Shown: one piece after another, positions 33,530 through 63,949 of the stretch | Layout: each line of letters begins with the position of its first letter | Numbering within the stretch: position 1 is the stretch's first letter | DNA from: Dehalococcoides sp. JdFR-54 | GTDB taxonomy: Bacteria; Chloroflexota; Dehalococcoidia; JdFR-54 | Reading direction: 5' to 3' | NCBI GenBank assembly: GCA_002011475.1 | Contig: MTNP01000037.1 | Location: 77,246 to 141,245, forward strand | DNA: 64,000 nucleotides | Translations under genes and position numbers: made by a program | The notes under the pieces: model-generated | Told to the model about the DNA's origin: nothing | Database searches by the model: none | The model's input: only the letters and a program-made list of their open reading frames with translations

Positions 33530-33549
33530 CGTTCCCCTCGTTCTGGATT

Positions 33550-38902: not shown

Positions 38903-39820
38903 GTGTCGTTATTTCACTATGTGAAGGGACGGCTTCACCGCTTAGAGGCCCTAGGGGTGACCATCGGGCCTGGCTTTAGCCTGAGCAGGCTAAGGGGGCA
39001 CCTGGGCGACTTACTGCGGGCGGACTCTGAAGTCTCGCTTGCGGAGATAGTAGGGTCTAGGGTGGGCTATCGTCATGTCTACCTTTCACCAGGATCGCCA
39101 GGGTTTGGGGGTGACATTGATTTAGGCTTCATCCACCGCTCAGAGTATTATAGTGCACAAGTGAAGACCTTTGATATCATGAGCTCCTCCTTGGGCCAAC
39201 GTATTGCCCAGCTATCGAGAAACTTCGACGTTGGCTATGAAGGCTATGGCAACATTTTCTCTGACCGACTTTTTGTGGGCGATACACTGGCTGCTCAAAG
39301 CTTGCGCCGAGTGCCAGGCATTCCTCGGAAAGCAAGTATAGGGGTCGACCGATTCGAGCCATCCATCGAGGATTTGCTACGTGGCGTGTTAAAGATAAGG
39401 AAAGAACTCAGGGCAAAAAGCTGGCAACTCCGGAACGCCCCTGGCTACAAGCTTATTGTGTTCGACATGAGAAGGTCCCATATTGAGCCTGACTTGCTTA
39501 CGAAGACTGTGACCTACGCTCTGACTCATTCGCACGAGTTCGACCATTTGGCTTGCGTGGCCATGCTGTGGTATAACTTTCTGGCCAAAAGCGCTACTTA
39601 CGAAAGCGAAACAATGTTGGTTCCGCTTGCATTCAACGAGCGGTTTAAGTTCGACAGAGGCATCCTATTACCTGCCGTGCCCTATATTCCCGCCAAAGTG
39701 ACCCCATTTACTCTGCCCACACATATGGAGTTCCTCAAAACGGGTTGGCAGAATCTCTTTGCTGTGGAGAAAGGTGTCATCACTATAGATGGCGTGGAGT
39801 ACGGGCCTCTTTTTAGGTAG
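38903..39820 (+). CDS. hypothetical protein (low-GC moron)
   Basis: 305-aa ORF, no recognisable motif. Confidence 0.45.
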   Translation: MSLFHYVKGRLHRLEALGVTIGPGFSLSRLRGHLGDLLRADSEVSLAEIVGSRVGYRHVYLSPGSPGFGGDIDLGFIHRSEYYSAQVKTFDIMSSSLGQRIAQLSRNFDVGYEGYGNIFSDRLFVGDTLAAQSLRRVPGIPRKASIGVDRFEPSIEDLLRGVLKIRKELRAKSWQLRNAPGYKLIVFDMRRSHIEPDLLTKTVTYALTHSHEFDHLACVAMLWYNFLAKSATYESETMLVPLAFNERFKFDRGILLPAVPYIPAKVTPFTLPTHMEFLKTGWQNLFAVEKGVITIDGVEYGPLFR

Positions 39821-39918
39821 CTTACCTCTTATAAAGGCCCCTTGACAAACTTGCGGTTCCGCGATACGCGTAGATCAGAGACCACGCCCGGGAAGTAGCC
39901 CGGAGCGGGCAAAAGGTG

Positions 39919-39959
39919 AGACGAGCTCACTCGGTCGGAGTGGGCTCGTCTTTTTATTT
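39919..39959 (+). terminator. rho-independent terminator (agacgagc-17nt loop-gctcgtct-TTTTATTT)
   Basis: 8-bp stem plus a T-run immediately before the structural module. Confidence 0.5.
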
Positions 39960-39980
39960 GGCCGAGCCCAGGGGAAAAGG

Positions 39981-41090
39981 ATGGCAGAGGAAACAGGACA
40001 GCCGATTCTTGAGGAGCTAACCCAGGAGCTGGAGCAGGCCCACCAGGAGATACTCCGGCTCAAGGGCTACGCCGTGTCCACCGGCCTGGCGTCCTCGGCG
40101 TCCGCCGAAGGCAAGGTGGTCAGGCTGCGGGGGATCGCCATCTCCGAGGGCACCCACAACGGCAAGTACTACCCCTGGGAGGAACTCTCCAGGGACTCCT
40201 TTGTGGACTCCTTCGTGGGGAAGCCGGTGGTGGTGGACCACAAGGAGGGGCTGCCTTCAGAGGTAGGGCTGGTCAAGGCGGCACGGAGAGACCCCGAACA
40301 GAAGGCCATCCTGGTCGACCTGGAGATATACGACGAGGCCCGTGGCAAGCAGGTGCTCTACCTCATGGAGAACAGCCGTCCCGTGGGCCTTTCGGTGCAG
40401 GTATGGGAGAGAGTGTCGCACGAAGACGGAAGGGAGGTGGCCCGAGACCTGGAGCTCCAGCACCTGAGCCTGACCATGGACCCCGCCGACAAAGAAGCCC
40501 GCATCGTGGCCAAGCTGAGCCAGAGCGGGCAGGTCAAGGAGGCTGAAATGACCGAGGAGACGAAAGAGGCAGTCCAGAACCCTTTGACAGGCCTTCGGGC
40601 TGAGGCCCTCGAGGCCGAAGGCTCAGGGCAGACCCTGAAGGTTGACGACTTTGAGAGGCTGGCCAGCGAAGTGAGAGAGGATGAGGTGCTCATCGCCACC
40701 CGCATCCCGCTAGCTTCACTGGCCCAGCATGGCTACCCCTACTACGCCTATCCCAGATACGGGAGGGCGCCAGGCCCTGACCTGGCTCAGAAGGTAGCCG
40801 AGTTGGAGAAGCGGGTGTCTGCCCTGGAGGAGACGGTGAAGAAGCTCTCCTCCAAGTCCGAGGCCGAGCACGAGGCGGCCGTGACCGAGGAATCTGCAGC
40901 CAGCGCCGAGGCGCAATCCCCCCAGGCGGAAAACCCTCCCGCCGAGGAGCCCGGAGCACAGGTTGAGGAAATGTCCTCCAGGGAGGACAAGCCCAGCGAC
41001 GAGGAGCGCACCCGTGAGGCCCTTTCCCAGCTCCACCCCGCTGACCTCATCTTCCTGGAGCAGATCGCCAAACGGAGGGAGAGGGTATGA
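39981..41090 (+). CDS. prohead protease (HK97/S78-like) with a C-terminal scaffold-like acidic/coiled-coil region
   Basis: GIAISEGTHNGKYYPWEEL...GKPVVVDHK...GLSVQ pattern. Located upstream of the capsid gene. Confidence 0.55.
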   Translation: MAEETGQPILEELTQELEQAHQEILRLKGYAVSTGLASSASAEGKVVRLRGIAISEGTHNGKYYPWEELSRDSFVDSFVGKPVVVDHKEGLPSEVGLVKAARRDPEQKAILVDLEIYDEARGKQVLYLMENSRPVGLSVQVWERVSHEDGREVARDLELQHLSLTMDPADKEARIVAKLSQSGQVKEAEMTEETKEAVQNPLTGLRAEALEAEGSGQTLKVDDFERLASEVREDEVLIATRIPLASLAQHGYPYYAYPRYGRAPGPDLAQKVAELEKRVSALEETVKKLSSKSEAEHEAAVTEESAASAEAQSPQAENPPAEEPGAQVEEMSSREDKPSDEERTREALSQLHPADLIFLEQIAKRRERV

Positions 41091-47426: not shown

Positions 47427-49185
47427 ATGTCGGCCAGGCTGAAGAAGGCGGGGCAGGCCGCCGCCAAAGGCATGATGGTCATCGGCGGGGCTGCCTCGGC
47501 CATGGCCGGGCTCTCCGTCAAGGCCGCCACCGACTTCGAGGCCTCCATGAGCCGTGCCCTTATGATGTTCGGCGACATCTCCCAGGAGCAGCGGAACAAC
47601 CTCTCTCAGCTTGCCCGCACCATCGCCGTAGAGACGGGAACCTCAAGCAGGCAAGGCAGCCGAAGCCCTGTGGTTCCTGGGCTCGGCGGGCATGGAGGCT
47701 TCCGAGGCGGGCAAGGCCCTGGGGGACATCATGAAGGTGGTGGCCGCCCGGGGCATAGACGCCGCCTCCATGGGGGAGCTGGCCATGACCTCCATGCAGC
47801 TCTTCGGCTATGAGGCAAAGGACACGGCGAAGGTGCTCAATATCCTGGCCGGGGCCGAGGCCTCGTCTCTCATCAACCTGGAAGACCTCAGGGAAGCCTT
47901 TGTCTATGCGGCGCCCACGGCCGCCCAGCTGGGCATGTCCCTGGAGGAGACGGCGGCCACCATCGCTGCCCTGGGGCGGGCCGGGGTCAGGGGCTCCATA
48001 GCCGGCACCGCCCTGGCTCGGGTGATGGAAGGGATGCTGGACCCCACCGATGAGGCCCGGGCCATGCTGCAGAGGCTGGGCATCTCCATCTGGGACCAGG
48101 AGGGCCGGATGCGCTCGGTGGTGGATGTCATCAAGGACATCGAGAAGGCCACCCGGGGGATGACCCAGCAGCAGAAGACCATGATCTCCACCACTCTCTT
48201 CGGCACCCGGGAGCTACGGGCCTTCAATGCCATCACCCAGGTGAGCACCGATTTCATCAACGAGCTCACCGAGCAGCTCAAGACCTCCAACGATGTGCAG
48301 AGGCAGTGGGAGGACTGGACCCAGACCAACGCCTACCGTCTGGGGCAGCTCAAGGCGAAGCTGGAGGATACCGCCATATCGGTGGGCGAGAAGCTCGTGC
48401 CCGTGCTCACGCCCTTAATCGAGTCCTTCGGCAGAATCCTGGACAAGCTGACGCCCCTCATCGAGAAGCACGGCGACCTCATCGCCAAAGTGCTGCTGGC
48501 TACAGCGGTTCTCCTTCCCCTGGGCCTGGCCCTCCAGGTAGCCATCAGCGCCGTGGGTGGGCTGGTCACCATTATGAGCGTCCTCCCCGCTGTGTTCACC
48601 GCCCTTACCGGCCCGGCAGGGATCGCGGTGGCTGCCATCGCTGCCCTGGTCACAGTGGGCATCCTGGTGCGGAAGAACTGGGACACCATTAAGGAGGCCC
48701 TGGTGAACATCTGGAACGCCATCGTCTCCGGGGCCAGGGCCGCCTTCGAGGGGCTGAAGGCCGCCCTGGCCGCCATCTTCAAGGGCATCCTCACCTACAT
48801 GCTGGCCCCCTTTCAGGGCATCCTGGAGCTTATCGATAAGGTCATTGGGGCAGTGCGCCGCATCCCCATCATCGGAAGTAGAATCCCCGGCCTGGGAGCC
48901 ATGGCTGACCTGGTGAGAACGGCCAAGGAGGCCATAGGCAGGGTGACCTACTTTGAGCACGGCGGGCTTATCCCCGAGCCCACCCTGCTCTACGGGCTCA
49001 GGTCAAGGCGGCCGTACGCCATCGCTGGCGAGCGAGGCCCGGAGTGGGTGGGGCCACCCGGGTCGGTGAACAACTACTTCCACATCCGCCAGGTGACGGT
49101 GAGGAGCGAGGACGACATCCAGAAGATAGCCCGGGCCCTCTACGAGCTCCAGGAGAGGCGGGCGCGGGCGGTGGGGGTGAGGTAG
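47427..49185 (+). CDS. tail tape measure protein (TP901-like), interrupted by a +1 frameshift near 47650
   Basis: Frame 0 47427 through ...IAVETGTSS and then Gly/Arg-rich junk. Frame 1 opens at 47632 (...AAEALWFLGSAGMEASEAGKALGDIM...) and runs to 49185. Confidence 0.7.
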
Positions 49186-49928
49186 TGTCCAGCTTCAGCT
49201 TCGGGGGGCAGGACTTCAAGCAGTGGGGCGTCTATCTCCTGGAAGGCTCCGAGAGGCAGGTGCTGGCCCCCTCCAGGGACAGGATGATCGAGATACCGGG
49301 GAAGCACGGCGCCTATGACTTCTCCCCAGAGTACGCCCCCAGGGAGTTCAGGCTCAGGTGCGTGGTGCTGGCAAGTTCTCACAGCCAGCTCCTATCCAGG
49401 CTTCAGTCCATAGCTGGAGCTCTGAACCTCTTGAAGGGGGCGCAGCAGCTTATCTTCGACCTCCAGCCCGACCGCTACTGGCTGGCCCGGTATTCGGGGA
49501 ACCTGGCGGCTATCCTGGGGGCCATTAATGGAGAGTTCGACCTGGAGATGCTCTGCGCTGACCCTTTCGCCTACAGCACAGCCGAGAGCCAGCAGACAGA
49601 CGCTATCCCTGCCACCTTCAATGTCCCGGTGGGCGGCGACGCCGAGGCCTGGCCGATCTATGAGCTCACCGCCAGCACTGGAGGCAGCGGCACGGTCTCC
49701 ATAACGAATAATACTTTGGGCAAGACCCTTAACTGGGCTGGCTCCTGGGCCCTCGGTGATGTGCTCAGGATAGACACCGCCAGGTGGATGGTCTACCTGA
49801 ACGGCAGCCCCAGCATGGGTGGGGTGAGCGGCGACTTCCCCAGGCTCAAGGGAGGAGCCACCAATAGCTTAACCGTCTCGGGGATGAGCGGCACCTGCCA
49901 GACGACCTTCCGGGCGAGATGGCTATGA
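49185..49928 (+). CDS. distal tail protein (Dit-like)
   Basis: GTG overlapping the tape-measure stop (TAGTG). 248 aa in the siphovirus-typical position. Confidence 0.5.
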   Translation: MSSFSFGGQDFKQWGVYLLEGSERQVLAPSRDRMIEIPGKHGAYDFSPEYAPREFRLRCVVLASSHSQLLSRLQSIAGALNLLKGAQQLIFDLQPDRYWLARYSGNLAAILGAINGEFDLEMLCADPFAYSTAESQQTDAIPATFNVPVGGDAEAWPIYELTASTGGSGTVSITNNTLGKTLNWAGSWALGDVLRIDTARWMVYLNGSPSMGGVSGDFPRLKGGATNSLTVSGMSGTCQTTFRARWL

Positions 49929-52900
49929 GCCAGCTTTATCGGGTAGAGATAAGAGACGCCAGTGGAGACCTGAAGGCCATCCTGGAGAACGCCTTCGCTG
50001 TGGGCTATGAGACGGCCTTCAACGAGGTGGGGGCTGCCTGGTTCTCCCTGCCCGCCGACGACCCCAAGGCCCCCGAAATCCAGCTGGGGCGGGAGGTCTG
50101 GCTCTACGAGCAAGGGAGCCTGGTGGACGTCTACCGCATCGCCCGCCGGGAGACTCGCCGCCAGGGGACTGAGCTGGTAGCGGCGGTCTCCTGCGAGCAG
50201 GTGGGCGCCTGCCTGCTGAACGATGTCATCCCCTTCAAGGAATGGCAGAACCAGAGCGTCTCCACCATTCTGCAGGACATCCTTGGTTACCAGTCCTCTC
50301 CAAAGATCATTTTTGGCGGCGTTGACCCTGGTCTGAACCAGAGCCGCTCCCTGCGTGCCGAGTGGGATACCCTCCTCGAAGCCTGCCTCAATGTCCAGGA
50401 GACTGCAGGCGGGGTGCTCCTCATCCTGCCCGATGCCGGCGACCCCACCACCAGGAGGCTCTACCTCAAGGAGACCTGGAACGTGGGGGAGGACACGGGT
50501 CAGCAACTCCGCTACGGCAAGAACCTGGCCGAGAGCAGCCGAACCGTTGACCTCAAAGGCCTGGTGACCAGGCTCTATCCCCTGGGCTACGGTGAAGGGG
50601 AGAACCAGCTAAGGCTCTCCTGGCTGGTGGTGCAGGACGAGGAGGCCGTGAAGAGCAGCGACGCCACCTACGGCTACCTCACCCTGGGCGGCGAATACTC
50701 CTGCTATGAGGGGTACACCGGGCCGGGAGATGCGCTGCCACAGGGGATGGTGGTCAAGAAGAACGGGGTGGACGACTCGGCTAACTGGAGCCAGGGGCCG
50801 ACCGACCAGATGCTCAGGTGCCCTATCGCCGTATTTGACCCTGCCGCTACCTACACCATCACCTACCGCCATGCCGACTACCTCAAGGCGGACACCTGGG
50901 AGACCTGGGGCATCGTGGCTGCCCCCTGGGTGGACAAAGAGCAGCTCTTCTTCGATAGCCTTATCCAGGGCGGAAGGGTAGCCCTGGGCAGGCTCAAGAG
51001 CCCCAGGGTAACCTACTCCGTCAAGGCTGTCGACCTGGCCAAACTGGGCCCGGAGTGGAACTTCGAGAAGCTCTCCCTGGGCAACCGGGTAAGGGTCATC
51101 GACGAGGAGCTGGGCATCTCCATAGAGGAGTATGTGGTCCGCATCCGCAAGGGCGACCTGGCCGACCCCCTGGACTTCGAAATTGAGCTCTCCAACAGGG
51201 TGGCCGACCTGGGGGATGCGGTGGCTTCCCTCATCGACCGTCAGGGTGGGTGGGAGAGGCACACCACCAGCCAGATAGGGGCGGAACAGGTCACCCTGGA
51301 AGGGCAGGAAAGGACGAAGCTGGCCTCCTGGCAGCACGCCAGCGACCCGAAGAAGATAGACGGCGCTAAGGTCTACTTCGGCACCATCGACACCGAGCAG
51401 CTGGCGGCCCTGGCGGTCCAGTTCCAGAACCTGGGCGACGAGGTGAGGGCGGGCATCGGGCGAGAGTGGTTCGGCTGCTTCTACGAGGCAGAATCCCTGC
51501 CCGGCGGCCCTGGCAGCGTGGTAGCCGACCCCTCAGCCTCAGGCGGCTCCTGCCGCAGAGCCCTCTCCACTGACACTGCTGGCTACCTGGTCTATGGCCC
51601 TTATCTCAGCACCCTGGCCGCAGGCAACCACTGGGTGCTCTTCCGCCTCAAGGTGGCCTCCAATGTATCCTCCGACCAGGTGGCTACCCTGGATGTCTAC
51701 TGCAGCCGGGGCATCCTGGCGTCAAGGGTGGTCAAGGCCAGCGACTTTTACCAGGCCAACGTGTGGCAGTCCTTCTCCCTCCTGGCCGAGGTGCGGGAAG
51801 ATGATGCCAATCTGGAGTTCCGGGTCTATTTCCACCCAGGGGCAACTGACCTATCCTGCGACTTCGTCAGGGCCATCCCCCTGGGCCTGGTGTCCACCCA
51901 GGTCATCGAGAACCTGGCGGTGACCAATGCCAAGATCGCCGATGCCGCTGTGGGCACCCTGAAGGTGGCCGACGGCGCCATCATCGCCGGCAAGATGAAC
52001 CTCATCAGCCACATCCTGGACGGCGTGGCCTGGGGCGACAACTCTCCTTCACCAGGCTACGTCTCCTGGAGCGGGGCCAGGGTGATCTACAAAGGCGTGA
52101 CCTACAACATCGCTGACGGCAACACCAGCCTCAGGTACATCTGGTGGGACTATACCTATCCCAGCTCCTTCCAGGCCAGCGATACCAAGCCCGACCTCGC
52201 CGATGACGACTTCCTGGTCTGCCTCAACCTCAACGGGACTCACCTCCAGGTCTGGGCGGGCACCCTGATTCACGGCGGCACCATCCGCACCGGCAGCATC
52301 TCCACCGAGGAGCTCCAGGCGAGCTCAGTAACTGCAGAAAAGCTCAATGTGCTCGGCCTGGACGCCAGCGGCAAGCTCATCCTCACTCAGATAGGCTCGG
52401 GCTCCCTGGACGACATCCCCGAGGGCGCCGTCTACGGCAGGGTTAAGATAGGTGCCCTGACCAACGGCCAGGTGGACCTGAGCAAGGCCGACGTCATCAA
52501 TAAGGTCGCCGACAATATCGCCGAGTCCGCCACCAGGAAATGGGCGGCGGAAACGGGGGCCGATGTTACCGCCAACCACGAGGCGGCCCAGGCAAGGAAG
52601 CTCACCCAGAACCAGTACCTGGATGAGTTCGGCATAGAGATAGCCTCCTCCTCAGGCCCGACCAGGGTGGTCATGTCCCAGTACCGCATCGCTGGCTACA
52701 ATGCGGGCAGCCTCCAGTTCGAGCTCAGGGCCTCCGATGGCCGGGCCTACGCCGGAGGGGGCAGCGTCATCCTGGACAGCGACGGCATCACCATCAATGG
52801 CACCCTGAAGCTCATCACCTTCAAGCCCACCGCCGACTGGAGCTTTATCTACGGCGGCTCCGATGGCTACCTGCACATTGAGACCCCGGAGCTCCAGGTG

Positions 52901-53656
52901 CACGGAGATATGTATTTTGATGGCCTCGACCTCCGTACCTACGTGGGCTTCGGCTACTATGCCAGGGTCGGGCCGGATAGCGATTCCTCTGCCTATACCT
53001 TCTTCCGCACCCTGAACATAGCGGGCTCCGGGAATGTGGACCACAAGTTCTGCCCCACGGCGGGAGCCTGGGGCTACCTGGGGGATGCTACCTACTACTG
53101 GTATAAGACCTACGTCGCCTACGCTTACTTTCTAGATGTGCTGCCCAAGAACGGCCCGGATACAGGGAGCGTGGGCAACCCCACCGACTACTGGTTCAAC
53201 GGCTATTTCCACTACCTCCGCTACAAGGACCTGGGCTCCTTCCAGGAGCACGACGACATCGACCTGATACGGCAGCTGCGCCCCGACCCGGTGCGCAAGG
53301 GGCTCGTAGACAGGGCTTCCATTCCTCGGGAGATGAGGGGGCAACCCGACCCCGAGGCGGTGGCTCGCCACAGGGAGGCCATCCTCAGAGACGCCCAGAA
53401 TGAGGCAGCCAGGATTCTGGCCGAGCCAGAGCGGAAGAAGGACGTCAGCGAGGCAGAGCGGGCGCTTCTGCGGGCTGAAGCTAAGAAGCAGAGTGAGAAT
53501 ATCCTGGCCCAGGCTCAGAAGCGAGCCCTGGAGCTGGATGCGGAAGCCGATGAAGGGATCGATGTGGGTGCCTCCATAGGGCTGGCCTTCGGAGCTATTC
53601 GCCAGCTTGCCGACAGGCTGGAAGCCCTGGAAAGGGCTATCGCAGGGAGGGCATGA
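49919..53656 (+). CDS. tail tip / host-specificity protein (Tal-like prophage tail endopeptidase N-terminus with a long fibre-like C-terminal region)
   Basis: 1245 aa following Dit. The C-terminal part is rich in beta-strand repeats and ends in a coiled-coil. Confidence 0.6.
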   Translation: MAMSQLYRVEIRDASGDLKAILENAFAVGYETAFNEVGAAWFSLPADDPKAPEIQLGREVWLYEQGSLVDVYRIARRETRRQGTELVAAVSCEQVGACLLNDVIPFKEWQNQSVSTILQDILGYQSSPKIIFGGVDPGLNQSRSLRAEWDTLLEACLNVQETAGGVLLILPDAGDPTTRRLYLKETWNVGEDTGQQLRYGKNLAESSRTVDLKGLVTRLYPLGYGEGENQLRLSWLVVQDEEAVKSSDATYGYLTLGGEYSCYEGYTGPGDALPQGMVVKKNGVDDSANWSQGPTDQMLRCPIAVFDPAATYTITYRHADYLKADTWETWGIVAAPWVDKEQLFFDSLIQGGRVALGRLKSPRVTYSVKAVDLAKLGPEWNFEKLSLGNRVRVIDEELGISIEEYVVRIRKGDLADPLDFEIELSNRVADLGDAVASLIDRQGGWERHTTSQIGAEQVTLEGQERTKLASWQHASDPKKIDGAKVYFGTIDTEQLAALAVQFQNLGDEVRAGIGREWFGCFYEAESLPGGPGSVVADPSASGGSCRRALSTDTAGYLVYGPYLSTLAAGNHWVLFRLKVASNVSSDQVATLDVYCSRGILASRVVKASDFYQANVWQSFSLLAEVREDDANLEFRVYFHPGATDLSCDFVRAIPLGLVSTQVIENLAVTNAKIADAAVGTLKVADGAIIAGKMNLISHILDGVAWGDNSPSPGYVSWSGARVIYKGVTYNIADGNTSLRYIWWDYTYPSSFQASDTKPDLADDDFLVCLNLNGTHLQVWAGTLIHGGTIRTGSISTEELQASSVTAEKLNVLGLDASGKLILTQIGSGSLDDIPEGAVYGRVKIGALTNGQVDLSKADVINKVADNIAESATRKWAAETGADVTANHEAAQARKLTQNQYLDEFGIEIASSSGPTRVVMSQYRIAGYNAGSLQFELRASDGRAYAGGGSVILDSDGITINGTLKLITFKPTADWSFIYGGSDGYLHIETPELQVHGDMYFDGLDLRTYVGFGYYARVGPDSDSSAYTFFRTLNIAGSGNVDHKFCPTAGAWGYLGDATYYWYKTYVAYAYFLDVLPKNGPDTGSVGNPTDYWFNGYFHYLRYKDLGSFQEHDDIDLIRQLRPDPVRKGLVDRASIPREMRGQPDPEAVARHREAILRDAQNEAARILAEPERKKDVSEAERALLRAEAKKQSENILAQAQKRALELDAEADEGIDVGASIGLAFGAIRQLADRLEALERAIAGRA

Positions 53657-53659
53657 GCC

Positions 53660-53875
53660 GTGTCTGACAGAGAGCAGGAACAGAAGCCGATGGGCATCTT
53701 CACCATCGCCTTTGACCCACAGCAGGGCCGCTTCTCCTTCGTGGGCAATATGCCGGTGGAGCAGGCTCTCGCTATCCTTCAGCAGGCCCTGGCACAGCAG
53801 CAGCGGGAACGAATGAGGCAGGAAATCCTTAAGGAGCTGGAGAGCAAGGCCAACCAGTCAGAGGCGCCGCCTTAG
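53660..53875 (+). CDS. hypothetical small protein
   Basis: 71-aa ORF. Confidence 0.35.
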   Translation: MSDREQEQKPMGIFTIAFDPQQGRFSFVGNMPVEQALAILQQALAQQQRERMRQEILKELESKANQSEAPP

Positions 53876-54183
53876 CGGTGATGTGTCAGGAGCTTTCCCC
53901 CGAACTTAAGCAGCCGTACCATGCCCTCTGCCAGCAGAACGATGGCCAGCCCGGAAATAAGGAGCATAGCTATGAGCATGGCTGCGACTTGGACAATGAA
54001 GCCCGCTTCTCCAAGGAACGTGCTCCTTGGACTGGGTATGACGCTGAGGATCAGATAGACGAGACCAAGGATGGGTCCTCTCCAAAGGAGAAGGCAAAGA
54101 ATAGCTACGATTCCGATAGCCATAATAGCTGCAAGGGTTGCCCTCTCCGTTGGATCGAACTCCAGGCCGCGCATCGCTATCAC
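53872..54183 (-). CDS. small multi-pass membrane protein (holin-like candidate)
   Basis: Three hydrophobic segments. No endolysin recognised nearby. Confidence 0.3.
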   Translation of the reverse strand: MIAMRGLEFDPTERATLAAIMAIGIVAILCLLLWRGPILGLVYLILSVIPSPRSTFLGEAGFIVQVAAMLIAMLLISGLAIVLLAEGMVRLLKFGGKLLTHHR

Positions 54184-54226
54184 TTCTAAAGATAATAGCC
54201 TCTTTGCAACGAGAATGCCACCTGCT

Positions 54227-55120
54227 CTACCCCCTCAGCAGGCTGTCGGCGGGGGAGTATTTCCGATGCTGAGCCTGGACGTCGGTGCTCCAGAGGTTCA
54301 CATACAGCCTGACGGTTTGCAGGCTGCTATGTCCCAGTATCTGCTGCAAGCTGAAGGGGTCGCCTCCGTTCAGCAGGTACTTCCTGGCGAAAGTATGGCG
54401 GAAGGTATGGGGAGAGCATCGCTTGCCGTTGACTCCGGCGAGCCTGGCGCATTCCTCAATGATGTATTCCAGCCTGCGCACCCCCAGGGGCTTCCCGTTG
54501 CGGCCAGAGAATAGCCAGCCCGAGCGGCGGTCACTCAGGTATCTCCGTAGTTGCCTGGTGGCCTCTCTGCCGATGGGCACCATGCGCTCCCTACCCCCCT
54601 TGCCCAAGACTTTGGCTGCAGCTGTGCCATTCTCAAAGTGGATGCGCTCTACCTCCAGCCTGGCAAGCTCCGACACCCTGAGCCCGCTGTCCAGGAGCAG
54701 CAGGAAAATGGCCTTGTCACGCTGGGGGTTCCGGGTGCTGCGGGTGGCCTTCAGGAGCAGCCTTACCTCTTCGTCCGAGAAAGGCTCAGGCAGCTTGCGG
54801 GATGGCCTGGAAAGTCTGACAGCAGCGAAGGGGTCATTATGGACCTTGCCTTCGGCGACCAGCCACTTCAAGAAGGCTTTGACTACGACGGCGTTCTGCC
54901 TGGGCGTTCCGTTGCCACCTCCATTTGCCTGCAGGTGGGTAATGTAGGCCCTGAGGTCGGTAGCGGATAGAGTTCCTGGCTCCGTCTTTCCGTTGTCACC
55001 GCACCAGTCGGCGAAGCGCCTGAGCCTGGCGCCATAGACCTTCAGAGTGCGCTCTGCCTTTCCCTCAACGGCCAGCGCCGCCAAATATTCCCCCACGACC
55101 CTGTGGATAGCTGTCATCAT
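54227..55120 (-). CDS. tyrosine-type site-specific recombinase/integrase (XerC/D-like)
   Basis: N-terminal SAM-like domain. Catalytic region R...HTFRHTFA...LGHSSLQTVRLY. Start set at MMTAIHRV (GGAGG upstream). Confidence 0.8.
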   Translation of the reverse strand: MMTAIHRVVGEYLAALAVEGKAERTLKVYGARLRRFADWCGDNGKTEPGTLSATDLRAYITHLQANGGGNGTPRQNAVVVKAFLKWLVAEGKVHNDPFAAVRLSRPSRKLPEPFSDEEVRLLLKATRSTRNPQRDKAIFLLLLDSGLRVSELARLEVERIHFENGTAAAKVLGKGGRERMVPIGREATRQLRRYLSDRRSGWLFSGRNGKPLGVRRLEYIIEECARLAGVNGKRCSPHTFRHTFARKYLLNGGDPFSLQQILGHSSLQTVRLYVNLWSTDVQAQHRKYSPADSLLRG

Positions 55121-55145
55121 GCCCTCCTGTGCTTCTTGCCTTGCC

Positions 55146-55179
55146 CACATTCATCGCTCTCCTCCCGCAGGAAGTCAAG
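55146..55179 (-). promoter_or_regulatory. conserved leftward promoter-like motif, copy C (upstream of the tyrosine integrase)
   Basis: cacattcatcgctc...caggaagtcaag. Confidence 0.4.
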
Positions 55180-55277
55180 CTGCAGGGACAAAAGGGGATT
55201 GACTTCTCCAGTCTTGACATGCTACTATTGCGGCAGCGAAAGGCTCAAATGTTCGGACATATTAGGGAGTATAAGCC

Positions 55278-55496
55278 ATGCCTGTGCTTGATACCTATCT
55301 GAATGTAGTGGAGGCAGCTGCTATTCTTGGAGTCCACTGGGAGACGGTTAAACGCCTGTGCCGGGAAGGGCGCATCCCGGCGGAGAAAGTTCACAATACC
55401 TGGCTCATTCACAAAGACAAGCTGGAACAGTTTGCCGGAACCTACAATGACCCTAGGCGCGGCAAAAGAAAGAAAACTGGACGAGTAGTCCCATAG
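55278..55496 (+). CDS. excisionase-family / MerR-like HTH DNA-binding protein
   Basis: LNVVEAAAILGVHWETVKRLCREGRIPAEKVHNTWLIHKDKLEQF fits the excisionase-type HTH pattern. Confidence 0.55.
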   Translation: MPVLDTYLNVVEAAAILGVHWETVKRLCREGRIPAEKVHNTWLIHKDKLEQFAGTYNDPRRGKRKKTGRVVP

Positions 55497-55618: not shown

Positions 55619-58300
55619 ATGGATGAAAGTACTCAATGGGACTTAATCAGGCGCGCTGCTGAGCGCGGGTATCTAGAAATTAGGGACAACAGGGTCCGCT
55701 ATATTTGCAGGCGGGTTTACGACGACGATTTCACTGACCCTGAGGAGCCTGTAAGAGCAGCTATATATGCGTGGCTGATCCTAGAGCGGGAGTACCCAAA
55801 CACGCAGATCGATGTCGAAGTGACCGTACCTCGAAGGATTCCAGCGGATCGGGCTGACATTGTCGTGTATGAAGATGCGAGATGTCTCCAGCCCTATTTG
55901 GTGGTAGAAACTAAGGAACGCGGCATAGGCCCAACGGAGCTAGCAAGAGCCATAGAGCAAGCTTTTGGGAATGCTAACTCTATTAGGGCGAAATATGCTC
56001 TGTTTGATAATCTAGACAGCTCGCGGCTTTACGATGTAGCAAACTTTCCGCCAGCGGAACGCGACGCCAACTATCTCGGGCCACGGGAAAACCTGCCCTC
56101 GGAGTTCGGCAGAGCTCTTGAATTTCGCCTCATTGCAGGCACCCCAGCAGATATAAGATCAGTAAGTGCCTCAGACCTCGAAAATCGGGTCAGGCGTGCC
56201 CATGGGATGATATGGGCCGGGGGCATGCGCGACCCTCTTACAGCGTTTAACGAGTGGTCAAAACTGATATTCGCAAAGGTACATGACGAGCGGCACACTC
56301 CAAATGGCCAACCTCGAAGATTTCAAGTCGGGGCTGGCGAAAGTGCTGTCAGGCTTGGTAATAGAATTCGGGCTCTGTACGACGAAGCCCGAATTGGTGA
56401 CCCATCTATTTTTTCTGAGCCAATATCACTTCCCGACGACAAGATTCGTGAGGTAGTGCGCACCTTTGAGGAAGTCGGCCTCACCTTAATGGACGTTGAC
56501 GCGCTCGGGGCAGCGTTCGAGGCATTCTTTGGCACTGTTTTCAGAGAAGAGTTGGGGCAATATTTTACTCCGCGTCCGCTGGTTCGTTTCACCGTAGCGA
56601 TGCTGATGCCCCAAGAGCGCGATATCCTGCTTGACCCCACTGCTGGAACAGGTGGGTTTCTTCTCGAGGCTTTGTTCCAAGTGTGGAAGGGCATAGACAA
56701 GGCATATGCGGGACAGCCTGAGCTTGAGCGGCGCAAGTATGATTTCGCACGGCAGCGATTGTATGGTATCGAGGTGCACCCCATAGTGGGCAGAATCTGC
56801 CAGACTAACCTATTAGTGCATCGTGACGGGCACACAAACATAGAGGTGGGAAAGACCTGCCTCGATGCAAGCTTCAGAAATCATCGCATTACAACAGTAA
56901 ATCCACCCTTCACCATCGTGCTGGGGAATCCACCATTCGGAGATGCAATTGAAGAAGGAGACAGTGACCGTCTCGGTTCTAGCCACCTAGACGACTTTGA
57001 GTTAGCCAGGGGCAGAAACAAGATCGACTCGGAGATAGTAATACTGGAGCGGGCTATCAAATTCCTTGCCCCTGGCGGCCGCCTTGGAATGGTAGTTCCA
57101 GATGGGCTTCTGAATAATACTGGTGAGCAATCACGCTGCCCTGCGTTTCGAAGATTCTTACTAAAATATACTCGTGTGCTGGCTGTAGTGTCGCTGCCGG
57201 ACCATGCGTTCAGAAAACAAGGTGCCCAGAATAAGACAAGCCTTTTGTTTTGCCGAAGATATACACAAGAAGAAGAACGGGCCTTTGAGCGGTCTTATAG
57301 TCAAGCCCTCCAGGAAATGAAAGACGCCCCCTTGTCCGACGTTGAGAAGGAGAGTGAGGCTATCAAGAAAGCCCTCATACATCATAGGTATAAAGTTTTC
57401 ATGGCAGAAGCGAATAATGTCGGATATACGGCGACGGGAATGCCGAGCCAACTTAACGACCTATACCATGCCGAAGACCGTGTTCCGCAGTATGAGGCTC
57501 AAGACACAATCCTCGGCCAATATGTTCAGTTTCTCAGAGATCCAGATGCATACGAGGGGACTCTACAGCCACCTTGCTTGGCAGAGTGGATAGACCAAGT
57601 GTTCGAGGCTCATAAGTCACATCGCTTGGACCCCAAATATCATCTTTTCAAGCGCGAAGAACACCAAGGTAGCCCGGAGGGAATGAAGCGATACAAACTT
57701 GGCGACGTTCTGAGGAGAAGGAGAGAAGCCTTAGTCCCTTACGACAGTCCTGACAGAGAGTTCTTAACGCTTACCCTTACGCAGGAAGGGGAACTGAAGC
57801 CACGCGAAGCGGGGGTCGGGAATAACCCGCCCGCATGGTTTGGCATCTATTTCACACCGGGAGTTAGATGGTATCGGGCTCGGGCCGGAGATCTCATCGT
57901 CTCTCGTATAGATGTGTGGAAGGGGTGCGTATCAGTCATCCCTGATGAATATGACGGTGCAATTGTGACCCAGGAATTCCCCATATACGCGGTGCGAGAG
58001 GAGATTATTCGTCCCTATTACCTCAAGCTGCTCCTCCGGACCGACTACTTCAGAAGAGCTATACGTGCCGTTACTACTGGACATTCAAATCGGCGGCGGA
58101 CCCAGGACGATGATTTTGAGAACCTGGAAATCCTTCTCCCAGATGTCACGGTGCAAGACAGGATTATTGAAGTGGTCCGGAAGAAAGAAAATGATAAAGA
58201 AGCTGCTGCACGCCAACATGAAGAACTTCTCACAAGGGTGGAGAAGGTCATTATGGGCAGCACTGATATCGGTGAATTCCTAAAGGAAGTTGGCAGCTAA
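55619..58300 (+). CDS. single-chain Type IIG/IIL (MmeI-like) restriction-modification enzyme: N-terminal PD-(D/E)xK nuclease, gamma-class N6-adenine methyltransferase, C-terminal target-recognition domain
   Basis: ADIVVYED...YLVVETK (D/ExK). Motif I LLDPTAGTGGFL. Motif IV LGNPPFG. A ~250-aa C-terminal target-recognition-like region. Confidence 0.65.
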   Translation: MDESTQWDLIRRAAERGYLEIRDNRVRYICRRVYDDDFTDPEEPVRAAIYAWLILEREYPNTQIDVEVTVPRRIPADRADIVVYEDARCLQPYLVVETKERGIGPTELARAIEQAFGNANSIRAKYALFDNLDSSRLYDVANFPPAERDANYLGPRENLPSEFGRALEFRLIAGTPADIRSVSASDLENRVRRAHGMIWAGGMRDPLTAFNEWSKLIFAKVHDERHTPNGQPRRFQVGAGESAVRLGNRIRALYDEARIGDPSIFSEPISLPDDKIREVVRTFEEVGLTLMDVDALGAAFEAFFGTVFREELGQYFTPRPLVRFTVAMLMPQERDILLDPTAGTGGFLLEALFQVWKGIDKAYAGQPELERRKYDFARQRLYGIEVHPIVGRICQTNLLVHRDGHTNIEVGKTCLDASFRNHRITTVNPPFTIVLGNPPFGDAIEEGDSDRLGSSHLDDFELARGRNKIDSEIVILERAIKFLAPGGRLGMVVPDGLLNNTGEQSRCPAFRRFLLKYTRVLAVVSLPDHAFRKQGAQNKTSLLFCRRYTQEEERAFERSYSQALQEMKDAPLSDVEKESEAIKKALIHHRYKVFMAEANNVGYTATGMPSQLNDLYHAEDRVPQYEAQDTILGQYVQFLRDPDAYEGTLQPPCLAEWIDQVFEAHKSHRLDPKYHLFKREEHQGSPEGMKRYKLGDVLRRRREALVPYDSPDREFLTLTLTQEGELKPREAGVGNNPPAWFGIYFTPGVRWYRARAGDLIVSRIDVWKGCVSVIPDEYDGAIVTQEFPIYAVREEIIRPYYLKLLLRTDYFRRAIRAVTTGHSNRRRTQDDDFENLEILLPDVTVQDRIIEVVRKKENDKEAAARQHEELLTRVEKVIMGSTDIGEFLKEVGS

Positions 58301-59422
58301 ATGCCTAGACATAGAAGTTTGACCCTGAAGAAATTCATCACAGCCATCAACGACACCGACCCTGGTCTGGTTGAGCGATACTTTTTACAGCTCATCCCAA
58401 AGGAGAAGCTACCTCCATACCTAATGATTATGCACTACGACTATGTGAGGCACTTGCTGGAGGGGTTGGAGGACGAGCGGCTACGGGGGACAATTTACGA
58501 AGACCTCCGCCGGATAAACGACATCGGCGAAAAAGCGATGGGCACCCTGGTGAGGACCACCAAGCGCTTCGGAATCGAGACCAACCAGAACGAGAAGCCT
58601 CAGGCTCTAGCTATGAGATTGTTCCTAGACCATCCTGAAGCTTTCGATTATGCTTGGGCCTGGTACTGTTATTACTACTCAACGAGCAAGATAAGCCAGC
58701 ATCGCATCGACTGCCAAGGGTTCAGCATCGATGTCGACAAACTGGATGCCTTCAAAGAGGAAGTGAGGTCATTCTTCTCTGACCTGGCCAAGGGCGAGGA
58801 ATGTCGAGTAAGCCACTATGAAGAGGACAACGAGGTAGTGATACTCGTTGCCCACGGCTCTTATATTCGGACAGTTGCCCGTTGGGAAGGTCGTGAAATA
58901 AAAATCGAGTCCTTTCGGCCCGCCTATGAGGACATTCTCCTCTACGACAAGACCCGCTCCCTGCTCTGTATAAAAGCTACCCTGGACAAGGATCGAGAGC
59001 AGTATATCAAGTCATTCACCAATGCCATCCTTGCTAACCCAGCCCTGGCGGAGAGCCCGAATAGGGATAAAGTCTATACCCTGCGCCCGCTTCAAGACGG
59101 CACCTTTAGCTGGGATGGGAACGAGCACATAACTTCCATAATCCCCTTAGAGGCGAGGCTGAAGCTCAGGGGCTCAACGGAGCCCGTTGTCGAGATAAGG
59201 TCTAAGGACTTGAGGCGAACCTTCGAAGACGACCTTGAAGGGCTTGATCTGGCCTCAGGGGAGCTGGTCTACATGAAATTCAGATTTACCATTGAGGTTG
59301 AGGATAAGGTCGAGAAGATTACCTTTATCATCGCCCCTCCGGATGTCACTGACCTGGCCAAGAAGAAGCACGCCGATATTATCTCGGCCTATCTCAAGGA
59401 AAATGGAGTGCAGCTAATTTGA
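58301..59422 (+). CDS. hypothetical protein (first of a two-gene operon between the restriction-modification gene and the deaminase-STAND gene)
   Basis: 373 aa. Starts 1 nt after the restriction-modification gene stop. Confidence 0.5.
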   Translation: MPRHRSLTLKKFITAINDTDPGLVERYFLQLIPKEKLPPYLMIMHYDYVRHLLEGLEDERLRGTIYEDLRRINDIGEKAMGTLVRTTKRFGIETNQNEKPQALAMRLFLDHPEAFDYAWAWYCYYYSTSKISQHRIDCQGFSIDVDKLDAFKEEVRSFFSDLAKGEECRVSHYEEDNEVVILVAHGSYIRTVARWEGREIKIESFRPAYEDILLYDKTRSLLCIKATLDKDREQYIKSFTNAILANPALAESPNRDKVYTLRPLQDGTFSWDGNEHITSIIPLEARLKLRGSTEPVVEIRSKDLRRTFEDDLEGLDLASGELVYMKFRFTIEVEDKVEKITFIIAPPDVTDLAKKKHADIISAYLKENGVQLI

Positions 59423-60510
59423 TTGACTGGATACTGCGAGAGCTGGAAAAACACCCGAATACGCTCTTTTATGAGAAGGAGCTGAAGGTTAGGGATGCCG
59501 CTGAATTTACTAAGATGAGGCGGGAGAGGCTCCTGGGCTACGTTCAACCTGATGACCGTAGTGAGACCTACGGGGTTGGGCAGGCAAAGCCTCTCTCAGT
59601 GGTCAACATTGGTGGCGAGCTTTACGGTATTGATGACGAGGACGCCGAAAAGGACCCCGTCCACCTGAGAAAGACAGACTTGGCTAGATATAGTTTTTCC
59701 CTGGACCGGTTCATAGATAAGCTTAGAGCGGTAAACAACCTTCTGGGTTCAGCCTCGCCGCTGGACAAGCGTCTGTTTTTCGCAGGGGAGAAGACTGTCA
59801 ATGGTAAGAGGGTGGCTTTTGTATTCGCGTTGCTTGACTCCGAGAAAAGGGCGGCTGACCTGCTCCTAACCCTACCCAGCCGGGTGTCTCCTAATCATGA
59901 CCGCATTGCTGTAGTTACTCCCTCCTTCACAGTTAAATCCGAGGCTGTGAGAGCACAGCTTGAGAGATTGCGTATCTATGTAATGCCACTCGGCGATACC
60001 ATGAGCCTTGAAACGGACGTATCGAGCCTTTTTAAAGAAGCGCCTCAACCATCGCCGTCAGCGTTGCTTACCTCCGAGCAAGAAGAGGAATTCGCTCGGT
60101 ATGGCTATAAGAGCAGATTGCCAATCTATATCACAGGGGATGTCGAGAAGCGGGCAACTAACATTGTCGAGATAAATGAGACCCGGGTTCCAATAGGAGA
60201 TGCTGCCTTTACCCTCTTTCTAAGGCTCGTGGTGGAGCTCAAGAAGAATAAGAAGGGCTCGGTTTCAAAAAGCACCCTTATAAGAGGCGGATACATCAAG
60301 GCTGATGGGGAATTCCAGGCCATTGCCCGGCTACGGCAAGCATTTAATGCGGCTCTTGGTTGGCTTGCTCCGCAGGAATTCATAGAAGCCCCGAAGCCGA
60401 AGACATTGCGCCTTTCCACCCATCCGGACCTCGTAACCTATGACAAAGAGAAGCTACTACGGCATAGCAACGAAAAGATAAGGAGGCTGGCACGACGGTT
60501 ACCCGGGTGA
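59419..60510 (+). CDS. hypothetical protein (second gene, 4-nt overlap)
   Basis: 363 aa. Confidence 0.5.
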   Translation: MIDWILRELEKHPNTLFYEKELKVRDAAEFTKMRRERLLGYVQPDDRSETYGVGQAKPLSVVNIGGELYGIDDEDAEKDPVHLRKTDLARYSFSLDRFIDKLRAVNNLLGSASPLDKRLFFAGEKTVNGKRVAFVFALLDSEKRAADLLLTLPSRVSPNHDRIAVVTPSFTVKSEAVRAQLERLRIYVMPLGDTMSLETDVSSLFKEAPQPSPSALLTSEQEEEFARYGYKSRLPIYITGDVEKRATNIVEINETRVPIGDAAFTLFLRLVVELKKNKKGSVSKSTLIRGGYIKADGEFQAIARLRQAFNAALGWLAPQEFIEAPKPKTLRLSTHPDLVTYDKEKLLRHSNEKIRRLARRLPG

Positions 60511-60596: not shown

Positions 60597-63320
60597 TTGA
60601 GTCAGGAAGAAATCAATTACATGAACTTGGCAATAGAAGAGGCTAAGAAATCAAGACCTGAGCCTGACGGGCGAGCCCACCCCAAGGTGGGGGTAGTCGT
60701 CGTAAGAGACGGCAAAATCTTGGGTACAGGTTACAGGGGAGAAATATCCTTTGGTGATCATGCTGAATATACCGTTCTTGAAAGAAAACTGCCTGACATC
60801 GATTTGACTGGGGCGACACTTTACACCACCCTTGAGCCGTGCACGAGGCGTAATCATCCAAAGGCACCTTGTGCGAAAAGAATCGTGGACAGAAGAATAG
60901 GTAAAGTCGTAGTCGGGATTTTAGACCCAAATCCGGACATTTATAAGAGCGGTCTATTCCTTCTAAGGGAAAGGGGGATATCGGTAGAACATTTTCCTGC
61001 TCAGTTACCAGGTGAAATAGAGGAGCTAAATAGGGACTTCTTGAAAGCTCAAAAAGAAGCTCGAGAGCGAGAATTGGAACCGCTCTTATTTCATCCTTTT
61101 CCCCTCCCCAAGAACTTTGCTGGACGTGAGCGAGAGTTAGACGATCTCGTTAAGATGCTTTCGGATGAAAGCGATGAGGCACCGCGAGTGGTCGCTATTT
61201 ATGCTATCGGCGGAACAGGAAAGTCGTGCTTAACGCGCAAGCTCATAGAAGAACGCCATCGCATTGCTCCACCATTCGATGCCATCTTCTGGTTTTCGTT
61301 CTACGAGGCTAAGCTGGAGGAGGCGGCCTTTGACCAGTTCTGTGAGGCTGCGCTTATTTACCTGACTAACGGGAAGTTCGACCCTACTTCTCCTCCCCTC
61401 TCCCCTGCTGCGAAGCGTGTGAAGCTTGACGACCTGCTACGTGGCCGGAGGGCACTCTTGGTGCTCGATGGCTTGGAAGTGGCACAGCGTCCTGATTTTA
61501 GACACCCTCGCTACGGTGAGGTCATTGATCGGGAGCTCCGCAGGTTCATCCAGGGCGCATGTGCTTTGCAGCGCAGTCGCCTATTGGTAACGACGCGGTT
61601 TCCTATCAGCGACTTGAGGGAAGTGCGTGGTTTCCATAGCCTATTACTCGAAGATTTGGCACCTCAGGACGCGCTAGGGTTCTTGCGCAAACAAGGCGTG
61701 AAAGGTAAAGGATACCGTCTCCGGGAAGTTGCTGCACACTATGGTCATCATGCTCTTACCTTAACTGTGCTGGCAGACTATTTAGTACGTTTCTATGATG
61801 GTGATATCGAGCAAGTGAGACGACTCGCTTATTTACCTGCCGAATCGAGGCAGGGCGAGAAACTTCAGTCTGTCCTCAATGGCTATTGGGAAATGCTGAC
61901 AGAAGCAGAACGCTTCTTTATGACGCGTCTTAGCGCTTTTCGTAGCGGAGTAGATGAGCAGGCGTTTGCTGTGCTGACGGTGGGCGATCCCAGCGACCCG
62001 ACATTCCGGGCAATGTTGTCACGGTTGCTTGATTCATCTTTGATTAAGAAGGAGGAGAGGCACAAAAAGGTTTACATTGCACATCCTGTTATTAAAACAT
62101 ATTTCTATGACCGCATGGGGCAAGAGGAGAGGCGACAGACGCATTTGGCATTGAGAGATTACACTGCTGGCTTGCCAGTACCAGATGAGCCACAGACGAT
62201 CGAAGATTTGGAACCACTGTTTGAACTGTTTCACCAATGTCTCGGTGCAAGACTGTATAACGAGGCGTTTGAGGTATATGGGCGTGGCAAAATGGATATT
62301 ACCCTTCTCTATTGGGGTCATTATGATGCAAATCGTCAGCTGGTCGAACCTTTGATTACTGCGTTTGAGCAGACGCCACCCGTTTGGGATGCTGCTCCCC
62401 ATCAACGCATTCGCCTGTGGTATGTATCCGCTCAACTTCATGCACGCTCCGGACAAACAGAGCAAGCGATTCATCGTCTTAAAGCTGCAATTGCTGCTCA
62501 CCAAGACTCCAAGGGCACCAAAAAAGAGACTCTATCAACAGGCTGGAGGTACTTAACTGAAGTCCTGATTCAATGTGGGGATTTGAATGGAGCACGTGCA
62601 AGCCTAACTGAGTTTCATGCGGTGGAGGAGGCTCTCAAACGTAGAAGAAAGTCTGACCTATTTATGGGGCTATCAGGCTGGTGCTCATTAGAACTTGGCG
62701 ATGTGAAGTCCGCTGCTGAAAACCTTTCAGCAGCGTTGTCAACAAGCCGTGAGCGCTACACTCCTCGAACTCGAATGGAATGCTTATGGCTTTGTAAACT
62801 GGGGGACCTTCATTTGCGAACGGACCAACTAGAGCAAGCGTTTTCAAACTATAAAAACGCTTTAACGATAAGCGTGGCGAAGAAATATAGAGATTGGGAA
62901 GGCCATGCGCTCCGAGGATTCGGCGACTTTTATCGCCTTGTACGCAACTATGAGAGCGCTGAGAAATACTATCGCCATGCGCTTTATGTCGCGGAGGGGA
63001 CTGGCTATCAGTATTTAGAGGCAGAGGTGTGCGTGGGGTTAGCACGCCTCTCTGTGGTGTCTGAGGCTAGAAGCCGAGTGCCAGACCTTGAGGCACCTCA
63101 GCACTGGATGAAAAAGGTGCTCATGATTGCCGAAGAGTGTGGCTACCGCGTGCAAAAGACAGAAGGACATTTGATTGCAGCACAGTTAGCTTTGGAGCAA
63201 CGCGAAGTAGAGTCAGCACAGTATCATGTGAAGGCAGCGAGGGAACTCGTCGATTTCACAGGGCACTATTGGACGCTAAAGGAGTTGGAAGAGCTTGAGA
63301 ACACGTTGCGCCTTGGCTAA
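60597..63320 (+). CDS. CMP/dCMP-type (TadA/RibD-like) zinc deaminase domain fused to an NB-ARC/STAND NTPase and C-terminal TPR repeats; candidate antiviral STAND
   Basis: Deaminase motifs DHAEYTV and [15 protein letters not shown]...[11 protein letters not shown]. Walker A IGGTGKSC, Walker B LLVLDGLE, hhhTTR (LLVTTRF), then TPR-like repeats to the end. TTG start (alternative ATG at 60621). Confidence 0.7.
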
Positions 63321-63430: not shown

Positions 63431-63949
63431 GTGCCTCGGCAGCCTGGCCTTGCTGTGCGAGAATACCAGCAGCTGGCTGAGGAGATACCACAGCTTATCA
63501 CTGACATCGTTGCATCGGAGCGACGAGTGCCAGTTTATACACGTGAGCGTGATGGCACGATTCTTTCGGGCTACGGGGCTATCGGGCAGGCGAATGTGAG
63601 GCTTCAGGTTGCAGAGCGATTCTTTGAAACTCACAGAGAGCTAAAGGCGTGGATGCTACCGCACTTCTTTGAGGTTTGGGACAATGACAAGCCCGTGCTT
63701 AAGCAGCATATCGTGCTTGGTCTAGGCACAGCTGTTCAGGGCATTAGAGATGGGCGCAAGCGTGACTACGTCTTAGTCGAGCTGAGCCAAATAAACTTTC
63801 AAGGCAAAGCCCTGGACAATAGGCGCGTCACCATCCTGTCAGAAGAAGCGCAACTCCCGGCTCAGCAGCAACCGTCAGCTAGACGGGGCCAAAGAGGAAG
63901 GGCGCAGGCAACACAAGGGACACTGCTTGAAGAGGATGATGAGCCATGA
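63431..63949 (+). CDS. hypothetical protein
   Basis: 172-aa ORF at the window edge. Confidence 0.35.
   Translation: MPRQPGLAVREYQQLAEEIPQLITDIVASERRVPVYTRERDGTILSGYGAIGQANVRLQVAERFFETHRELKAWMLPHFFEVWDNDKPVLKQHIVLGLGTAVQGIRDGRKRDYVLVELSQINFQGKALDNRRVTILSEEAQLPAQQQPSARRGQRGRAQATQGTLLEEDDEP

Follow-up and report, generated by a model that had tools for sequence, protein, structure and literature searches.

We find that two adjacent genes, here called A and B, in a 64,000-nucleotide (nt) stretch of DNA from Dehalococcoides sp. JdFR-54 (Chloroflexota; Dehalococcoidia; GenBank assembly GCA_002011475.1, contig MTNP01000037.1, positions 77,246 to 141,245 of the forward strand; the whole stretch is called the window below) form a widely distributed module without prior description, which we group with the RdgC-fold DNA binders of mobile elements. 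The libraries and the literature that we searched contain no description of the pair. Our best reading is that A–B is an autonomous two-gene module of integrative mobile elements, that is, of islands integrated at tRNA or tmRNA genes and of prophage-like elements. By analogy with the Rex system of lambda, the role we would most readily assign to this non-enzymatic, putatively DNA-binding module is Rex-like exclusion, a tentative assignment to which we give somewhat less than an even chance.

A preliminary description of the window, made from its sequence, had placed two open reading frames (ORFs) of 373 and 363 amino acids, overlapping by 4 nt, directly after a restriction–modification (RM) gene, and the coordinates were confirmed on inspection (Table 1). 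The stop codon TAA of the RM gene occupies positions 58298–58300 and is followed, with a gap of 0 nt, by the ATG of A, and the 4-nt overlap lies between the stop of A and the start of B. A Shine-Dalgarno-like AAGGAAG is found within the 3′-end of the RM gene, 11 nt 5′ of the ATG of A, a position consistent with translational coupling from the RM gene to A and on to B in the window. The TTG start of B lines up with the starts of its homologues (MIDWIL...) in the alignment. A and B sit in an island of 50% guanine plus cytosine (GC) in a genome of 63% GC: in the composition profile the GC fraction is about 0.50 from 55 kb through the end of the window and 0.60–0.64 in most of the remainder, which bears out the low GC content attributed to the island earlier. 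In a collection of 5.8 billion proteins we found 136 homologues of A and 60 of B, most of them full-length with 40–82% identity and all of them unnamed, and an exhaustive profile search for the A superfamily returned 1437 cluster representatives at E ≤ 1e-3 and 692 at E ≤ 1e-10 (the superfamily size of about 1400 clusters is counted at 50% identity). Because of these many homologues in the protein collection and the profile search, we regard A and B as real genes and not chance ORFs.

The preliminary description had recognized no motif in either protein, and neither did we: searches of Pfam, PADLOC, NCBIfam, PHROGs and, by sequence and profile, the PDB gave no significant match for A or B, and the same held when relatives (64, 40 and 20) were scanned one by one, Pfam being empty for B and its 40 relatives alike. 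No known anti-phage component was found for A or B in PADLOC-DB 2.0 at E ≤ 0.1 or among the NCBIfam antiphage models at E ≤ 1, and a look-up of the exact sequence of B returned no record. Homology to metabolic or structural proteins, which had been named beforehand as grounds for dropping the candidate, did not appear, and the pair is conserved in related islands, where its absence had been named likewise.

The linkage of the two genes was examined in 10 genomic and 65 metagenomic loci, plus context look-ups, which were dereplicated at 90% identity to 41 lineages (individual loci carry labels of the form L001). B follows A directly in all 38 dereplicated loci that have at least 150 nt downstream of A, with the identical 4-nt overlap in 35 of them, and the pairwise identities of A correlate with those of residues 1–200 of B (Pearson r 0.85). 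The pairing reaches clades in which A is only about 20–25% identical (E 9e-72 for A1 against A3 in hhalign). The downstream partners in these distant clades are homologous to B, with hhalign probabilities against the B family of 99.1% (L093) and 94.3% (E 1e-7, collinear over 303 columns). Judged from these comparisons A and B are an obligate, translationally coupled and co-evolving pair. The distribution is broad and patchy, with 10 matches among 185,579 species genomes and with the pair occurring in Eubacteriales, Planctomycetota, Chloroflexia, Thiopseudomonas, Syntrophaceae and Desulfobacteraceae.

Alignment and an AlphaFold model of high confidence (predicted local distance difference test, pLDDT, 90; predicted template modelling score, pTM, 0.85) divide protein A into an N-terminal helical domain of about residues 1–125 and a beta-rich RdgC/CENP-N-like domain. 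Foldseek matched the model of A to RdgC (2owl_B, E 3.1e-6; 2owy_A, E 1.6e-5; prob 1.0), with modest TM-scores of 0.33–0.45, and to the kinetochore proteins CENP-N/Chl4, and in the viral structure library BFVD to phage proteins called "recombination-associated" or RdgC-like; one distant member of the A family has a weak Pfam CENP-N match. RexA, RdgC and the kinetochore proteins Iml3/Chl4 (orthologues of CENP-L/N) have been reported to have a common DNA-binding fold, and RdgC to form a dimeric ring on DNA and to inhibit RecA (PMC11077077); a common fold has likewise been reported for the nucleoid protein YejK, RdgC and CENP-N (PMC11229321). By its model A has the DNA-clamp fold of RdgC and CENP-N, a class to which lambda RexA is also reported to belong. 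The likeness of A to RdgC is one of fold and not of sequence profile, as the RdgC profile (Pfam PF04381) did not match A or 64+20 of its relatives at E ≤ 1 and a PDB profile search was empty. RdgC and the phage RdgC-like proteins are the best structural match of A and are, like it, non-enzymatic, whereas A differs from RdgC in having about 125 additional residues at its N-terminus that form a helical domain, a CENP-N-like architecture, and in being always paired with B, borne on mobile elements and rare, RdgC being a stand-alone chromosomal gene. The homologue alignment shows two conserved motifs in A, MPRHRSL at the N-terminus and YLKENGVxL at the C-terminus. The N-terminal peptide MPRHRSLTL (residues 1–9, window 58301–58327) is near-invariant in the family, yet disordered in the model (pLDDT below 50); B or a host factor may dock there.

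The model of protein B is that of a soluble three-domain protein (pLDDT 88.7, pTM 0.55) with an all-soluble alpha/beta fold. B has an isoelectric point (pI) of 9.35 and, with a maximum 19-residue hydropathy of 1.23, no transmembrane (TM) segment, and A has none either; enzymatic and membrane domains are absent from both proteins. Foldseek with the whole chain of B gave weak and mixed matches, because the arrangement of the domains in the model is uncertain. The N-terminal module is present in every B variant. The C-terminal domain (pI 9.9) of B in the window is modelled with an N-terminal beta-sheet, the order a1-b-a2-a3 and a C-terminal beta-hairpin (DSSP: E236-243, E247-252, E255-260, H261-277, E281-283, H284-289, H295-312, E329-332, E339-341), which is the topology of a winged helix. 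Foldseek found a weak match of B to the KdpE–DNA complex, and the B homologue of locus L093, which aligns to the B family at an hhalign probability of 99.1%, has a faint precomputed Trans_reg_C match and four PDB sequence matches at E ≤ 10, all of them to the DNA-binding domains of PmrA/BasR and KdpE (E 0.1–1.1). We therefore propose, on the model and on sequence support that stays below threshold, that B of the window ends in an OmpR/PhoB-like winged helix. B shares with OmpR/PhoB (Trans_reg_C) proteins the topology of its C-terminal 150 residues; this domain falls below every threshold for them and lacks a receiver domain, and in about one quarter of the relatives it is replaced by unrelated C-termini.

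In those lineages, about a quarter, only the first 210 or so residues of B are kept and at least six unrelated C-terminal sequence types take the place of the rest. Pfam scans found no known domain in the alternative C-termini, several of which look, judged by eye only, helix-turn-helix (HTH)-like or winged-helix-like. The exchange extends to loci whose A proteins are more than 90% identical, with L061 and L065 differing from L062 in the C-terminus of B. The winged-helix region of B also ends longer, otherwise unrelated proteins (297–622 residues, one with TPR repeats) and is therefore a portable domain. A Cys-rich insert (…YPCxLPCxxxCPM…AICP…), probably a zinc knuckle, is found at about residues 50–80 of the N-terminal domain in the B proteins of L007, L014, L015, L027, L029, L037, L042, L089 and L092; B of the window has no such insert. 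A PD-(D/E)xK nuclease was considered for the middle domain of B on account of weak Foldseek matches to NucS/EndoMS, Can2 and AF1548 (E 0.08–0.6) and was rejected, since residues 119–205 contain no invariant acidic or lysine residues in an alignment of 40 sequences.

The genes that flank A–B vary from lineage to lineage. Recurrent neighbors are tyrosine integrases (8 lineages), DnaG-like primases (7 lineages), DNA methyltransferases and restriction subunits, and the ends of the elements are marked by tRNA or tmRNA genes: L007, L014 and L015 have the order cargo, A, B′, small genes, primase, integrase and tRNA, L045 has A, B, integrase and tRNA-Ser, and the element of L092 is integrated at tmRNA. 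The cargo near the pairs includes RM, BREX, AbiE, HD-CE, DUF499/DUF1156 and UvrD-PDDEXK genes, and RM or BREX genes lie within 10 kb of the pair in most other long loci. The suggestion in the preliminary description that A and B could be accessory components of a neighboring system is not supported by this comparison where the two immediate neighbors are concerned. That A and B are accessory subunits of the downstream deaminase-STAND gene, or of the particular RM enzyme upstream, would follow from adjacency in the window only (86 nt to the STAND gene, 0 nt to the RM gene); a homologue of the STAND gene stands beside A–B in none of the 41 dereplicated loci and a homologue of the RM enzyme upstream of A in a single one (L046), and we consider this explanation exceedingly improbable.

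A more general connection to RM has more in its favor. In about 11 of the 33 loci with upstream sequence, the gene directly upstream of A on the same strand and at a short gap is an RM component: in the window (gap 0) and L046, in L014 (Type ISP), L015 (PLD-SNF2 plus Eco57I-like), L019 (HsdR) and L016 (HsdS), in L036, L041 and L047 (type III Res) and in L037 and L007 (DUF1156/DUF499), five kinds in all (I, IIG-like, III, ISP and DUF1156/DUF499). Either A–B could be tied to RM systems in general, or the pair could border a hotspot for cargo. If the former, A–B would be co-transcribed with the upstream RM operon and modulate it, for example in the timing of restriction following a transfer, in the protection of self-DNA or as a PrrC-like backup for an inhibited RM system. 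Two thirds of the loci have no RM gene directly upstream, and there an integrase, an XRE repressor with M78 peptidase, small unknown genes or host genes precede the pair; a shared protein–protein interface is unlikely because the RM types are mechanistically unrelated; and a guard role would find no toxic effector in A or B. No cargo is commoner in such islands than RM genes, so that the adjacency may be passive. In L014 the 16-nt motif GGCTGGCCAATAAAAT closes the Type ISP RM gene in frame (…IDETIDTHGGWPIK and stop), and a coding remnant with the same end (…IDETIDTHGGWPIK and stop), interrupted by stops, is found upstream of A in L015, L057 and L007, which suggests that the junction is a point of cargo exchange and not one of co-evolution. 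With these points on both sides, we regard a role as generic RM accessory or regulator as quite unlikely.

The motif GGCTGGCCAATAAAAT itself was found 11 times (with up to 2 mismatches) against about 0.5 expected, always 15–35 nt 5′ of a start codon, six times before A and also before other small genes (L007:10020, L014:2636, L015:9965, L030:176 and 518, L037:6455, L057:1685, L027:1473 and 3135, L076:372). The motif could be the scar of a cassette junction, a promoter-like element (TAAAAT) or the two combined, and it is not present in the window.

In L001, which belongs to the clade of the window, and in L089, L092 and L094 of a distant clade, an XRE repressor and an M78/ImmA-like peptidase directly precede the pair on its strand; in the distant clade phage-type recombination and replication genes follow the pair. 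This arrangement recalls CapH/CapP and ImmR/ImmA. CapH/CapP is reported on the strand opposite its target operon, whereas the XRE and M78 genes here share the strand of A–B, as ImmR/ImmA do in mobile elements, and on this orientation a CapH/CapP-regulated immune operon was rejected for all four loci.

The same contexts bear on the possibility that A–B is part of the element's backbone and controls the life cycle of the element, as a lysogeny or excision switch, in the initiation of replication or copy control, or by protecting the excised replicon from RecA/RecBCD of the host. B would then read operator or origin sites of the element through its exchangeable winged helix, with A as a RexA-like co-factor. 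The block integrase, A, B is conserved in L004, L061, L067 and L069, where the integrase (66–88% identical) is more conserved than A; in L007, L014, L015, L027, L029 and L042 small genes, a DnaG-like primase and an integrase beside a tRNA are found in synteny with A–B′; and in L089, L092 and L094 the pair lies between XRE plus ImmA and the recombination and replication genes. A primase (DnaG-like, PrimPol, AEP or DUF3987) is encoded on every backbone with the pair, neither A nor B is an enzyme, and the type of B C-terminus follows the clade of the element. Modulation of a switch is moreover documented for RexA, which acts on the lambda CI/Cro switch (PMC11077077). On the other hand, the pair is found with unrelated integrases (22–29% identity; tyrosine and serine recombinases) and on unrelated backbones, and intact copies exist without nearby replication genes, L001 continuing directly into housekeeping genes. 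In the window's island the 954-residue product beyond the STAND gene has no precomputed Pfam match (the 157- and 199-residue genes were not scanned). The C-terminus of B is also swapped among loci with A more than 90% identical, which would break the recognition of a fixed site in the element itself, unless the site was swapped too. We hold such a backbone function to be the main rival of the Rex-like reading and only somewhat less likely.

We favor a Rex-like role because of the fold class of A, the two-gene format, the position after repressors and integrases and the company of defence islands. In this mechanism B would use its conserved N-terminal module to dock on A and its winged helix to bring the A–B complex to DNA, so that a swap of the C-terminal domain would re-target the complex. 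A, as a dimeric RdgC-like clamp, would coat or encircle the bound DNA and block recombination or replication without cutting, much as RdgC acts on RecA-dependent reactions. Expressed from the resident element, the module could by analogy exclude or restrain the DNA of competing phages and mobile elements, and feedback on the switch of the element itself may occur as well, as with RexA. A bolder form of this proposal, which we hold to be improbable, is that B is a programmable adaptor that loads the RdgC-like clamp A on foreign or competing DNA and thereby silences its replication or recombination; A–B would then be an unrecognized non-enzymatic system of immunity or conflict among mobile elements, and Rex-like exclusion one branch of a much larger superfamily of RdgC-fold clamps with different output partners.

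Among the known systems A–B most resembles those of the RexA type, yet it lacks two of their marks, sequence homology to RexA and a membrane partner. Like Rex (lambda RexA/RexB; actinophage Sbash gp30/31 and CarolAnn gp44), A–B is a two-gene operon on an integrated element in which one partner has a predicted fold of the RdgC class, as reported for RexA (PMC11077077). The actinophage RexA homologues, of 370–372 residues, are of the size of A, and the position of the pair downstream of an XRE-type repressor in four lineages recalls cI-rexA-rexB. Unlike RexA, A has no match in Pfam, which would include RexA, and B is a soluble protein of three domains with predicted DNA binding, whereas RexB is a channel with four TM segments; nor do sequenced phages contain a relative of A–B or does the window contain an adjacent repressor. 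RexA alone turned up in a literature search on RdgC-like proteins in defence.

Several observations weigh against Rex-like exclusion. Sequence similarity of A to RexA or to RdgC was not detected (Pfam and PHROG gave no match to RexA), RexA is not in the top 50 Foldseek matches of A, and the TM-scores with RdgC given above are modest. No relative was found by tblastn of A against 50,697 phage genomes (empty at E ≤ 1) or 72,556 plasmids, or by scanning 2.9 million viral contigs (IMG/VR) for the A profile and for two distant members. An effector such as a nuclease, an NADase or a pore is absent from A and B, and a membrane mechanism of the RexB type is excluded because B has no TM segment. The XRE and M78 genes are absent upstream in the window and in most loci, the synteny of one clade with small genes, primase and integrase is backbone-like, and the contact between A and B, the dimerization of A and the binding to DNA are all steps that we infer. 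Taken with the preliminary description, which had offered A and B as a candidate for a separate two-gene defence system, these results uphold the separate, self-contained unit (B after A in every locus, with varying flanks). A defence role would fit the context of mobile elements and defence islands and the RexA-like fold class; neither protein has an effector-type domain, and regulation or maintenance of the element is an equally serious rival.

The layout in the window, taken from the metagenome-assembled genome GCA_011170395.1, begins with siphovirus-type tail genes and continues with the integrase on the minus strand and, divergent from it, the HTH_17 gene on the plus strand, followed on the plus strand by the RM gene, A, B, the STAND gene and genes of 164, 954, 157 and 199 residues, after which housekeeping genes resume. 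In the stretch 48300–55150 of the window the tail genes (PhageMin_Tail, Sipho_tail/Dit and a Prophage_tail of 1245 residues) end at 53656, directly before the integrase, and the integrase may be part of either the prophage or the low-GC island. The sequence that separates it from the HTH_17 gene (Table 1) is likely to be the control region, possibly the promoter, for the whole string from HTH_17 through RM, A and B to STAND. A repeat search around the window genes found no operator-like repeats linked to B.

Table 1. Features of the window around A and B (positions count from the first nucleotide of the window)
Feature	Position	Strand	Description
Tyrosine integrase	54227..55150	-	Upstream context
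Putative control region	55169-55228		Inverted repeats GAAGTCAA/TTGACTTC and promoter-like TTGACT-18-TACTAT (with TG), between integrase and HTH_17 gene
HTH_17 excisionase/AlpA-like gene	55278..55496	+	Divergent from integrase
RM enzyme	55619..58300	+	893 amino acids; fused HSDR_N_2, N6_Mtase/Eco57I and specificity domain; directly upstream of A
Shine-Dalgarno-like AAGGAAG	58283..58289	+	Read from the sequence
Gene A	58301..59422	+	ORF, 373 amino acids, ATG start
Gene B	59419..60510	+	ORF, 363 amino acids, TTG start
Conserved N-terminal module of B	59419..60048	+	About residues 1-210; alpha/beta domain 1-105 and small alpha/beta domain 119-205; in variant B proteins the hidden Markov model matches only positions 1 to about 210; co-varies with A
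C-terminal domain of B	60064..60507	+	About residues 216-363; OmpR/PhoB-like winged helix predicted from secondary structure of the model
Deaminase-NB-ARC-TPR (STAND) gene	60597..63320	+	907 amino acids; 86-nt gap after B

The gene for the 164-residue protein that follows the STAND gene (window 63431–63949 region) has no match in any library, and the 954-residue protein (L088:15799–18663, about window 64099–66963 and beyond the window) has none in Pfam. A 46-nt direct repeat, 87% identical, brackets the genes of 157 and 199 residues where the low-GC island ends on the right, just ahead of the housekeeping genes (L088:18764–18809 and 20046–20091, about 67064 and 68346, beyond the window end), and may be att-like or an insertion scar. 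Further low-GC patches in the window at 18000–20000, 31000–34000 and 38000–40000 (0.48–0.53 against about 0.63) may be other acquired cargo, and a tRNA-Gly is found at 24252–24329.

If A–B is a module of exclusion or defence, its mechanism would work without an effector, by the clamping of DNA instead of cutting or killing, and the Rex paradigm, the mechanism of which is itself still unresolved, would gain a large, unannotated superfamily whose partner is a different one. Should A–B serve element control, the conserved pair would mark the flank of an RM cargo hotspot in a family of tRNA-integrated islands and would be useful for finding new defence cargo. Either way, two families left blank by all current libraries now have names and domain boundaries.

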